Shown here: positions 3,749 through 5,168 of the stretch, one piece after another
Layout of the letters: each line of letters opens with the position of its first letter
Numbering within the stretch: the first letter of the stretch is position 1
From: a virus
Lineage: Monodnaviria > Loebvirae > Hofneiviricota > Faserviricetes > Tubulavirales > Inoviridae
Direction: 5' to 3' (one strand)
IMG/VR virus record: IMGVR_UViG_638341089_000007
Length of the DNA stretch: 13,148 nucleotides
The notes under the pieces: model-generated
Database searches by the model: none
Told to the model about the DNA's origin: nothing
Seen by the model: only the letters and a program-made list of their open reading frames with translations
Translations under genes and position numbers: made by a program

Positions 3749-4453
3749 TCATAATGCTGCGGGAGCCACGTAATAGACAATCACAAATACAGCTAATGCT
3801 CCACCTGCTCTTACCCAGTTTGATATTTTGACTTCTATAAACCCGGGTATAAATGAGACTACCCCAGCAACTGCTGCTGAAAGAATTATTCGAAAGAAAG
3901 TGTATTGAAAGTTCGTTGGATTAGGTATAAATATTGCGATTATTATAAAAAGAATAACAAGTAAAATGCCAAAGCTAAATGCCGCTATTCTCTCGTGTGC
4001 TTTTGTCAATTTTTCTTTTCCTTTATTGTCAAATCCATATACTGGCATATCTTCATTAACGAAAAGATTCCTTATTTCTTTTGCAGAACGTTTGTCATGG
4101 GCTTTTACTATCCTTTGCATTGAAGCAAAAGCAGTGGAGCTTGGTTTAATACTATTATCATTCATTACCTCTCTATATTTTTTGTAATGAGCTAAGATAA
4201 GGTGAAGAACATCAATGCATGTTTCTGCAAGCCATTGATTCCATTGAGTATTATTTAATTCATCTACTGTTCTGTTATGTGCAGCGCAGTGTTCTAAATA
4301 GCCGAAAAAACTGTCTCCACATGAATTCACGGTATCAAAATCACATTTACCAGATAGGTAACACTCTAATGACTCAGTATATTTTTCATATAAACGCTCA
4401 ATTTCTTTTTTTTGATTATCAATGATACCGTGAACATCCATATCTGATTTCAC
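3749..4453 (-). CDS. Hypothetical 234-aa protein: Cys/His-rich N-terminal soluble domain (~155 aa) plus 2-3 C-terminal transmembrane helices; prophage accessory gene
   Basis: ORF-track ORF; start ATG overlaps the stop of the upstream 91-aa ORF (TGATG); hydrophobic C-terminus (AAFSFGILLVILFIIIAIFIP, FFRIILSAAVAGVVSFIPGFI, GGALAVFVIVYYVAPAAL); AT-rich; no family recognised. Confidence 0.65.
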   Translation of the reverse strand: MKSDMDVHGIIDNQKKEIERLYEKYTESLECYLSGKCDFDTVNSCGDSFFGYLEHCAAHNRTVDELNNTQWNQWLAETCIDVLHLILAHYKKYREVMNDNSIKPSSTAFASMQRIVKAHDKRSAKEIRNLFVNEDMPVYGFDNKGKEKLTKAHERIAAFSFGILLVILFIIIAIFIPNPTNFQYTFFRIILSAAVAGVVSFIPGFIEVKISNWVRAGGALAVFVIVYYVAPAAL

Positions 4454-4728
4454 TATCTTTTTTGTTGAGTGTTATTTGACTGGGATTGAATTTTTGCCAA
4501 TAGCGAACTTGCTTTCGATGTATTCAATCCATTACAAATCATTCTTGTAATCGGTTTTTTGTAAATTCGATGAACGATATTTTCAACTTCAGTGATGCTT
4601 TCATTGCCACTGAGTTTTTTTATCTCATTGAACATCTCCTCCAATTGTTCATTTGTTGGATGCCATTTGATTATATCTAATTCTTCCTCTAATGCTTTTT
4701 TAAAAAGGAAAACCTGAAAAGATAACAT
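4453..4728 (-). CDS. Hypothetical 91-aa protein, prophage accessory operon
   Basis: ORF-track ORF with AGGAAAG Shine-Dalgarno upstream; start is 1 nt after the stop of the upstream ORF (TAAtATG); C-terminal tail GLNTSKASSLLAKIQ is paralogous to the tail of the upstream small ORF. Confidence 0.6.
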   Translation of the reverse strand: MLSFQVFLFKKALEEELDIIKWHPTNEQLEEMFNEIKKLSGNESITEVENIVHRIYKKPITRMICNGLNTSKASSLLAKIQSQSNNTQQKR

Positions 4729-4729
4729 A

Positions 4730-5044
4730 TTACTTTCCTTGTGTTGGTTTAGTAGTGGATTGTTGAGCTTTTTCTAAAAGCCTTTTTGCTTTAGATGTGT
4801 CCAAACCATCTTGGGCAAAGCCTTGTTGCTTATCATTCTGTTTTTGTTCACTTTTTTTTGGCGTATTCATCAGTATATACTTTGACTCGTTTTGTTTATC
4901 TCGATGACTTACTTTTTGTTTAAGTTTTGCACAAACTAGAACGTGCAGTGTTGGTAATACTGCACGTTTGTACCATTCGTGGTACTTAATCCTTTTGTTT
5001 GGCAGACATGAGATCTTCTGCTGCATCTTTAGAGTAGTTATCAA
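4730..5044 (-). CDS. Hypothetical small protein, 46-104 aa depending on start; prophage accessory operon
   Basis: Maximal ORF from TTG at 5044; ATG alternatives at 5026 (overlaps the 60-aa gene) and 4870 (46 aa, leaves hairpin 4940-4968 intergenic). None has a clear Shine-Dalgarno, so the start is uncertain. C-terminal tail GLDTSKAKRLLEKAQ. Confidence 0.45.
   Translation of the reverse strand: MITTLKMQQKISCLPNKRIKYHEWYKRAVLPTLHVLVCAKLKQKVSHRDKQNESKYILMNTPKKSEQKQNDKQQGFAQDGLDTSKAKRLLEKAQQSTTKPTQGK
4940..4968 (-). promoter_or_regulatory. Perfect inverted repeat ACGTGCAGT-N9-ACTGCACGT; candidate operator or attenuator/terminator
   Basis: 9-10 bp perfect palindromic arms (4941-4949 / 4959-4967) just downstream of the stop of the RHH-like gene on the - strand; no strong T-tract follows. 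Confidence 0.4.
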
Positions 5045-5168
5045 TCAGATAACCTAAAATCTCTGTCCATGTAATTGTTTTTCCTAGTTTTACACTGGCA
5101 TTTATAGCCAGTCGTTCTAGTTTCATTTTTCTTTCTTCCGTCACGTTATAAGTCGTGCGCTTTGCCAT
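4986..5168 (-). CDS. Putative ribbon-helix-helix (CopG/Arc-like) transcriptional regulator, 60 aa; candidate phage repressor
   Basis: ORF-track ORF divergent from gII; pattern consistent with RHH: beta strand RTTYNVT, helix A EERKMKLERLAINA, turn GKT, helix B WTEILGYLIDNY. Placement resembles the divergent repressor of CTX-type inoviruses. Fold assignment is by eye. Confidence 0.5.
   Translation of the reverse strand: MAKRTTYNVTEERKMKLERLAINASVKLGKTITWTEILGYLIDNYSKDAAEDLMSAKQKD

Follow-up and report, generated by a model that had tools for sequence, protein, structure and literature searches.

What is encoded by the AT-rich block of minus-strand genes that lies between a dif-like site and gene gII of a filamentous prophage was the question raised by positions 3749-5168 of the virus record IMGVR_UViG_638341089_000007 (Inoviridae). 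The whole stretch of 13,148 nucleotides that was analysed is referred to below as the window. In an earlier note, the block had been described as a translationally coupled four-gene operon of separately acquired cargo, and superinfection exclusion, abortive infection or lysogeny control had been suggested as its function. Here, the locus was concluded to be the cargo slot on the attL side of a filamentous prophage related to IKe/I2-2, which is arranged in tandem at dif. The slot is filled by three genes, for proteins of 46, 91 and 230 aa, which form a mobile cassette independent of the phage, and the fourth gene belongs to the phage core. With slightly better than even confidence, the cassette was interpreted as a conflict module (phage exclusion, abortive infection or addiction), in which a membrane effector would be regulated by the small proteins; this is inferred from sequence comparison.

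The cargo slot and its boundaries

The four co-oriented minus-strand open reading frames (ORFs) between the dif-like site and gII were confirmed in the ORF list, and the same four genes were called by PGAP, the NCBI pipeline, in 22 complete genomes. The block was AT-rich, as had been stated: the three cassette genes had a GC content of 33.6% and the gene of the 60-aa protein one of 36.6%, against 41.3% in the remainder of the phage and 48.6% in the flanking host DNA.

The four-gene operon itself did not stand. The 60-aa protein WP_001335098.1 was identical in prophages with four different cargo sets. Because it stayed unchanged with every cargo variant of the phage type, its gene belongs to the conserved phage core, as that of a putative regulator, and is not a part of the acquired module. 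This gene is also not translationally coupled to the others. Instead, its stop codon is separated from the start codon of the 46-aa gene by a 115-nt spacer with two significant hairpins (Table 1). The first hairpin is GTACCA-cgaa-TGGTAC, and the second one has a 10-bp stem (core ACGTGCAGT) and a 9-nt loop, followed by UUCUAGUUUGUG. Both were 83-88% identical in E. coli dif prophages with an unrelated 148-aa repressor of the helix-turn-helix (HTH) family HTH_3. The homology with prophages of other cargo restarts within the spacer, at window positions ~4916-4940; therefore, the evolutionary unit is three genes plus a separate core regulator, and the hairpins mark the boundary of the cargo slot. 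They could function as a leaky terminator, mark a junction of recombination or provide a signal in single-stranded DNA.

The proposal that the block was separately acquired was borne out by the variation of the slot. The cassette was present in 22 of the 48 E. coli genomes with the same regulator/gII type, the carriers being mainly human extra-intestinal isolates, and five other cargo sets, including a divergent allele of the cassette, were found in the same slot (Table 1), which brings the alternative contents of the slot to at least six. Close prophages thus held different gene sets between the same conserved flanks, which is the pattern of an inovirus accessory hotspot.

A multi-transmembrane (multi-TM) protein of 140 aa adjoins the regulator in most of the other cargo variants and in the prophage of strain UTI89, and is absent from the phage of the window. 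An immunity or exclusion role is one possibility for it.

Genes of the cassette and the small proteins

The second gene of the block had been read as encoding 46 to 104 aa. The reading of 104 aa was rejected, as only the last 46 residues are conserved in the Proteus, If1-like and Cronobacter copies of the cassette, where the short-form counterparts have 50 aa, 55 and 54 aa, and 57 aa, respectively. The 46-aa protein keeps only the C-terminal motif FAQDGLDTSKAKRLL and is matched by the hidden Markov model (HMM) of a small-protein family to which the 91-aa protein belongs in full length. The family comprises 187 members of 82-92 aa with no Pfam domain, with residues P24, S71 and L77 invariant across phyla and a C-terminus of the form G-[LIV]-[DN]-x-S-x4-LL. 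Proteins of the 91-aa type were always encoded immediately 5' of proteins with the N-terminal domain (N-domain) of the 230-aa protein. Two full-length small paralogues are present in most lineages, and in enterobacteria the first of them is reduced to ~50 aa with only the motif kept. Two-copy fusions of the small paralogues also exist (P0210, P0211), which suggests that the pair acts together. Given the fusions and the conserved stop/start overlaps, the two small proteins probably work together. The AlphaFold2 (AF2) model of the 91-aa protein, based on 58 sequences, was of low confidence, with a predicted local distance difference test score (pLDDT) of 58.

TAAtATG was confirmed as the junction of the 46-aa and 91-aa genes; a Shine-Dalgarno sequence, AAGGA, lies 7 nt upstream. 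The TGATG junction that had been claimed along with it was rejected, since the sequence between the 91-aa and 230-aa genes reads either TAGTG, with the GTG overlapping the stop codon by 1 nt, or TAG-N9-ATG. The latter is more probable because homologues begin with MD(V/I)HGII and PGAP calls a protein of 230 aa. The 46-aa and 230-aa genes have only weak Shine-Dalgarno sequences. At the corresponding stop/start junctions, the genes are separated by 1 nt in Proteus and overlap by 1 nt in Aeromonas.

The statement that none of the proteins could be recognised was upheld by profile searches. Nothing significant was found for the four proteins (46, 91, 230/234 and 60 aa) in Pfam, NCBIfam or PADLOC, and PHROGs returned families of unknown function only. 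The sole match in PADLOC-DB v2.0.0 was that of Csx27 to the TM region of the 234-aa protein (E = 0.0057), which fell short of significance and was discounted as weak and attributable to TM composition. A full-text search returned no paper for the four WP accessions, and a megablast search of the module against the GenBank phage collection gave no match. Three homologues of the 91-aa protein (P0058, P0062 and P0063) are publicly labelled 'S-(hydroxymethyl)glutathione dehydrogenase'. This label is wrong because proteins of such a size and family cannot be that enzyme, and an annotation error seems to have been propagated.

The 230-aa membrane protein

The 230-aa protein consists of a cytoplasmic helical N-domain (residues ~1-143) and a conserved module of three TM helices (the 3-TM module, residues ~147-225). 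The soluble N-terminal domain and C-terminal TM helices that had been predicted earlier were recovered in the AF2 model (pLDDT 84), which contained long helices at residues 3-29, 35-58 and 66-93, short helices up to residue 138, and three TM helices at residues 147-171, 177-197 and 212-225. The predicted topology is N-in/C-out, with a 145-aa cytoplasmic domain. Consistent with this orientation, Lys/Arg-rich segments flank the cytoplasmic side, some relatives fuse periplasmic-type domains C-terminally, and TIR, CHAT and ankyrin domains are among the partners in other relatives. Sequence motifs of the N-domain are W-x-Q-x2-AE-x-C, TA-x-A-x-MQR and LP-x-YGF.

A word-indexed search yielded 57 detectable relatives, and an exhaustive profile search yielded 3161 representative clusters (at 50% identity) with E <= 0.001. 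Many of the profile matches listed cover the 3-TM module alone; this module has no Pfam entry, and its sequence identity across phyla is 50-60%. Its partner domains included EAD11, TIR_2, CHAT, NUDIX, TPR/HEAT, CarboxypepD_reg (five times), DUF4019, SPOR and SH3_3. EAD11 was found in one member of the 3-TM family (E = 7.6e-17). Effector-associated domains (EADs) serve as adaptors between the cores of conflict systems and effector or signalling domains (Kaur et al. 2020; PMC7159879). The 230-aa protein of the window has no EAD, and there is no adjacent STAND or vWA-MoxR core. In two homologues, P0174 and P0189, the 3-TM module is replaced by a single TM helix and a PGAP1/DUF676-like hydrolase, both fused to the N-domain, an architecture that appears to be an effector swap. 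A metagenome scan for such hydrolase variants returned only forms in which the N-domain is joined to the 3-TM module.

A profile search against PDB sequences gave nothing, and a Foldseek search against BFVD gave no match at E <= 0.001. The model of the 230-aa protein resembled no solved or viral structure beyond generic helical bundles, with JukB (9jht_B) and the helical bundles of Cry-toxin domain I among the nearest known comparisons.

Occurrence of the cassette beyond the prophage

The independence of the cassette from the phage was shown by its distribution. A locus scan with one genome per species returned 75 loci. The same plan recurred, that is, one or two small paralogues followed by the helical domain on the conserved three-helix membrane module. 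Outside inoviruses, it was found in Proteus (50, 91 and 231 aa), Aeromonas (88, 83 and 264 aa) and Microbulbifer (84 and 258 aa), in ten further genomes including Pseudomonas, Paraburkholderia, Methylobacter and Parazoarcus, and in three metagenome-assembled genomes, one of them of Flavobacteriales. The HMM of the small family detected one or two ORFs immediately 5' of every N-domain locus, and none in the 63 loci with a 3-TM module but without the N-domain; hence, the small proteins track the N-domain and not the TM module.

Mobile elements also carried the cassette. A Cronobacter plasmid contained genes for 57, 97 and 248 aa. An If1-like inovirus, which matched If1 at 92% identity across 65% of the locus, had an HTH gene followed by genes for 55, 99, 54, 88 and 228 aa, so that the small pair was duplicated, and the cassette was antisense to the core genes; If1 itself has no cassette. 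In a P2-like phage, a cassette of 96 and 233 aa lay antisense between the tail-fibre assembly gene G and the sheath gene FI. The P2 reference holds fun(Z) at the same place, annotated "blocks growth of T5; lysogenic conversion". Three phage lineages thus carry the cassette in a moron or exclusion slot: the prophage of the window, the If1-like inovirus and the P2-like phage.

The neighbourhood of 13 chromosomal copies was scanned as well, covering 77 neighbours within 5 kb, with no background control. Genes of Gabija, Olokun, PDC-S20, PDC-S73 and other defence systems were matched (Table 1), and integrases and transposases were also found nearby. Two further Pseudomonas loci contained ORFs at the positions of the Gabija genes that corresponded to them in size only. 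Together with the fun(Z) slot and the variable slot of the E. coli prophages, these neighbours place the cassette in defence islands and prophage hotspots.

In one Aeromonas locus (L006), the cassette was flanked by genes of membrane proteins of 235 and 286 aa without Pfam domains (4659-5366 and 6919-7779), and the arrangement was repeated on an independent contig (L007). The unit may comprise five genes in Aeromonas.

Function of the cassette

We proposed that the 3-TM module is the effector, which would oligomerise and compromise the inner membrane, and that the helical N-domain would serve as its regulatory handle. The small proteins would dock on the N-domain as a pair via their conserved C-terminal helix and would either silence the effector or pass on a triggering event, for instance an infection or the disappearance of the element. 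A benefit to the lysogen would in this way become a benefit to the prophage.

The conflict-module interpretation was favoured because the cassette is compact and has no recognisable domains, three phage lineages carry it in slots with exchangeable contents, other copies have several known defence systems as neighbours, its place in one slot can be taken by a divergent allele, and a multi-TM module that is conserved goes together with a soluble handle that varies. The superinfection exclusion or abortive infection guessed at in the earlier note thereby gains indirect support, from the fun(Z) slot and from the Gabija, Olokun, PDC-S20 and PDC-S73 neighbours. The lysogeny control suggested with it is unlikely for the three cargo genes because the cassette occurs outside inoviruses. 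A more specific version was put forward only tentatively: that a pair of tiny paralogues with a shared C-terminal docking helix gates a membrane-perforating 3-TM effector, as an unrecognised type of abortive infection (Abi) or exclusion system, and that the 3-TM module defines a large unannotated effector superfamily (~3,000 clusters) reused with TIR, CHAT and EAD across phyla.

Several observations weigh against a conflict module. The 3-TM module could be a generic envelope anchor or transducer and not a toxin, because most of its members have periplasmic-type partners (CarboxypepD_reg, SPOR, SH3_3 and DUF4019). The model of the 91-aa protein, one of the putative docking partners, is of low confidence. 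The neighbourhood argument lacks a formal background control, the three Pseudomonas loci are not independent since all share one island, and some copies lie among metabolic genes (Aeromonas). Finally, two independent acquisitions by inoviruses could point to a function specific to filamentous phages.

Among other explanations, pure addiction was considered improbable, yet it survived best. According to it, the membrane protein would act as a toxin and the labile small proteins as its antitoxins, so as to stabilise a dif prophage that is easily removed by host Xer recombination, with no anti-phage role. Small genes that come first, with overlapping or nearly overlapping junctions to the gene downstream, are typical of type II toxin-antitoxin (TA) operons, and the junctions of the cassette agree with this, the toxin role being putative. 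Another variant of the same slot carries a gene of the Fic/Doc family; no cargo is commoner than TA modules in the filamentous prophages of Vibrio (PMC11630473), and the Pf phages offer a precedent with PfiAT (PMC12328805). However, no homology to any TA family and no recognisable DNA-binding antitoxin domain was detected in Pfam, NCBIfam or PADLOC, many copies are chromosomal beside defence systems or lie in the fun(Z) slot of P2, where the known role is exclusion, and two or even four small genes per effector would be unusual.

A role in the biology of filamentous phages was regarded as quite unlikely. The cassette would exclude other inoviruses, for example at Tol or pilus entry, or would tune virion extrusion or the envelope stress at the inner membrane. 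Such a role would suit an inner-membrane protein, as entry and assembly of inoviruses both take place at the inner membrane, and two unrelated lineages (IKe/I2-2-like and If1-like) carry the cassette antisense to the core and next to a regulator. Nevertheless, a P2-like myovirus, a plasmid and many bacterial chromosomes without a nearby inovirus also have the cassette; IKe, I2-2 and If1 lack it, and fewer than half of the prophages of the window type possess it (22 of 48). A holin/antiholin pair did not fit either, as no endolysin gene stood next to the cassette in any locus examined, the predicted topology is N-in/C-out with a large cytoplasmic domain, and inoviruses do not lyse the host.

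Even less credence was given to a factor of lysogenic conversion or envelope physiology, in which a membrane sensor or anchor would serve host fitness or virulence and would be unrelated to conflict between genetic elements. The broad 3-TM superfamily, with its mostly periplasmic-type or repeat partners (TPR/HEAT in addition to those named above), speaks for it, as do the predominance of human extra-intestinal E. coli among the carriers and the modest effects of Ypfphi and CUS-1 on host fitness (PMC4266046). The cassette of N-domain and small proteins, in contrast to that broad family, is found in moron slots of phages and has Gabija, Olokun and PDC systems as neighbours, and the replacement of alleles within one slot is typical of conflict genes. 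The notion that the small ORFs arose by chance and that only the 230-aa gene is real, to which the many spurious and overlapping ORFs of AT-rich DNA, the weak Shine-Dalgarno sequences of two genes and the poor model of the 91-aa protein might lead, was rejected, as it is refuted by the conservation of the small family, by the short form being conserved at the protein level in four divergent cassettes and by the fused two-copy forms.

The prophage and other features of the window

Window positions 1-3573 are the E. coli host flank with yneE, tam and hipBA, in the order found in strain F11 and in many other genomes. The dif-like site directly 3' of hipA has an intact XerC arm and centre and a degenerate XerD arm, and it recurs at 11951-11978. 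The prophage is a head-to-tail tandem of an 8299-bp unit, with copies at 3650-11948 and from 11949 to 13148. The sequences from 3650 and from 11949 onward were identical at 1200 of 1200 bases, up to the window end. In strain F11, the two tandem prophages hold different cargo in the slot; therefore, tandem copies need not duplicate each other.

The plus-strand core genes were arranged in the order gII (5296-6390), gV, gVII-like, gVIII, gIII, gVI-like, gI/Zot and the gIV secretin. The nearest named phages were I2-2 and IKe, with ~68% nucleotide identity. Of the two groups of genomes with which a comparison had been recommended, the core is like IKe/I2-2 and probably not that of a plain CUS-1, and integration at dif with a dif-like attachment site is shared with CUS-1/Ypfphi. 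A common gII/gV module with the dif prophage of UTI89 (O18:K1:H7) is apparent, as judged from annotation only; that prophage has an HTH_3 repressor and structural genes annotated differently from those of the window phage.

The 60-aa protein matches PHROG 2503, of unknown function, and has no match in Pfam or NCBIfam at E <= 1. A TTYNVTEE strand followed by two helices is a pattern compatible with a ribbon-helix-helix protein, as read from the sequence with no profile match. Between the regulator and gII, three GAGTTCA repeats on the minus strand (5216, 5240 and 5287) overlap a sigma-70-like promoter; by consensus and repeat matches only, they look like an operator array. The terminator of the cassette would be bidirectional by its symmetry. 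The region around it (3675-3749) occurs with 91-93% identity on many E. coli plasmids and also beside chromosomal SIR2-family genes, and may be a mobile or repetitive extragenic palindromic (REP)-like terminator element.

A 15-nt tandem repeat in gIII (7793-7957) encodes a repetitive linker. It may be prone to slippage, because gIII of F11 is annotated as frameshifted. A 20-nt inverted repeat directly 3' of the secretin gene (11179-11227; 90% complementary, 9-nt loop) could serve as a terminator or fold into a structure in single-stranded DNA. The two ORFs at the right prophage end are probably the counterparts of YPO2280a/YPO2281 next to attR of Ypfphi and would make up a second accessory set.

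Table 1. Features of the window, alternative cargo of the slot and defence genes near chromosomal cassettes
Feature	Position or locus	Strand	Remarks
dif-like site	3652-3679	+	Marks where the prophage unit (8299 bp) ends on the left; differs from E. coli dif at 8 positions
Intrinsic terminator	3682-3717	-	Ends the cassette transcript; 13-bp GC-rich stem, then UUUU; z -3.8
230-aa effector-like membrane protein, WP_000382466.1	3749-4441	-	234 aa if from GTG at 4453
91-aa small cytoplasmic protein	4453-4728	-	Full-length small-family member; C-terminal GLNTSKASSLL
46-aa protein, WP_001335097.1	4730-4870	-	Truncated paralogue of the 91-aa protein
Two hairpins	4940-4985	-	Just 3' of the regulator stop; dG -20.8 kcal/mol, z = -3.4
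60-aa putative regulator, WP_001335098.1	4986-5168	-	Phage core, outside the mobile cassette
Divergent control region, regulator/gII	5202-5293	-	Sigma-70-like promoter 5229-5202; GAGTTCA x3
ORF, 102 aa	11253-11561	+	Right prophage end; PHROG 4115, function unknown
ORF, 77 aa, two CxxC pairs	11679-11912	+	Right prophage end; PHROG 5435, function unknown
Second cassette copy	12048-13148	-	Identical; 230-aa gene 12048-12740, 91-aa gene 12752-13027, 46-aa gene cut by the window end
Alternative cargo, 123+155+140 aa	Second tandem copy of F11		
Alternative cargo, 114 aa + ECs_2282 zinc-binding protein + 140 aa			
Alternative cargo, Fic/Doc ('death-on-curing') family protein			
Alternative cargo, 140 aa + divergent cassette allele	Strain KE48		Allele 27% identical
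Alternative cargo, 369+140 aa	Related UTI89 dif prophage		HTH repressor
140-aa multi-TM protein	L001 19461-19883; L002 4933-5355; L008 5538-5960; L098 2719-3141		
GajA	Pseudomonas L013		E 8e-205; immediately 3' of the cassette
GajB	Pseudomonas L013		E 8e-138; same-sized ORFs for GajA and GajB in L014 and L015
OloA (Olokun)	Paraburkholderia L011		E 1e-59; immediately 3' of the cassette
OloB	Pooled neighbour set, no locus assigned		E 3e-146
PDC-S20	Parazoarcus		E 5e-154
PDC-S73	Proteus		E 5e-258
AbiTii, PD-T4-5, gop-beta-cll (cll/beta)	Pooled neighbour set, no locus assigned		Matches

Significance and comparison with known systems

If the cassette is a working exclusion or Abi system, it would be a compact (1.2 kb), uncharacterised addition to the defence catalogue, from clinical E. 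coli, and would offer a first functional entry point to the 3-TM family, which is very large and lacks annotation in every database. The dif filamentous prophages of E. coli, like those of Vibrio, would be exchangeable carriers of conflict genes, which bears on the host range of phage therapy in uropathogenic strains. For annotation, the real unit has three genes and not four, and the dehydrogenase label of the 91-aa proteins needs correction.

In lambda RexAB, in the TM effectors of CBASS and Pycsar and in SLATT pores, a membrane effector is controlled by a cytoplasmic partner. The cassette is alike in that a soluble sensor or regulator would be combined with a small multi-TM effector, in prophages and defence islands, and the fusion of the 3-TM module to TIR, CHAT and EAD11 elsewhere adds a likeness to membrane-effector Abi systems. 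In contrast to these systems, with which it shares no sequence similarity (PADLOC, Pfam), the cassette has no nucleotide-signalling enzyme, its regulators would be two tiny paralogues, and the effector bears a helical cytoplasmic domain of its own.

To type II TA operons and the PfiAT and KKP modules carried by Pf phages (PMC12328805, PMC11341870), the cassette is similar in its small upstream genes linked to a larger downstream gene and in its location at an inovirus end beside a repressor. It differs from them in the lack of homology, in small proteins without a recognisable DNA-binding domain and in the putative toxicity of the 230-aa protein. With P2 fun(Z) and old/tin, the likeness lies in the homologous cassette of small and membrane proteins placed antisense at G-FI in the P2-like phage. 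The cassette showed no homology to Fun(Z), Old or Tin, and fun(Z) in P2 is a single gene of ~1.6 kb. The P2/P4 defence hotspot described by Rousset et al. is the gpA-gpQ locus and not G-FI (PMC9122126).

The closest parallel in location is provided by dif-integrated Vibrio inoviruses, the accessory hotspot of which is enriched in defence and TA systems (PMC11630473), and by the ORFs adjacent to attL that were reported in 2014 to differ between Ypfphi and CUS-1 and to be of unknown function (PMC4266046). In contrast to the Vibrio hotspot, the host here is E. coli, the core is IKe/I2-2-like and the cargo matches no catalogued system. As in those phages, a variable locus lies by a dif-like site and a regulator. 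The cassette family and the 3-TM superfamily are undescribed in the libraries and literature searched; the kind of locus, however, is already known, since defence and TA hotspots have been documented for Vibrio inoviruses, P2/P4 and Pf phages.

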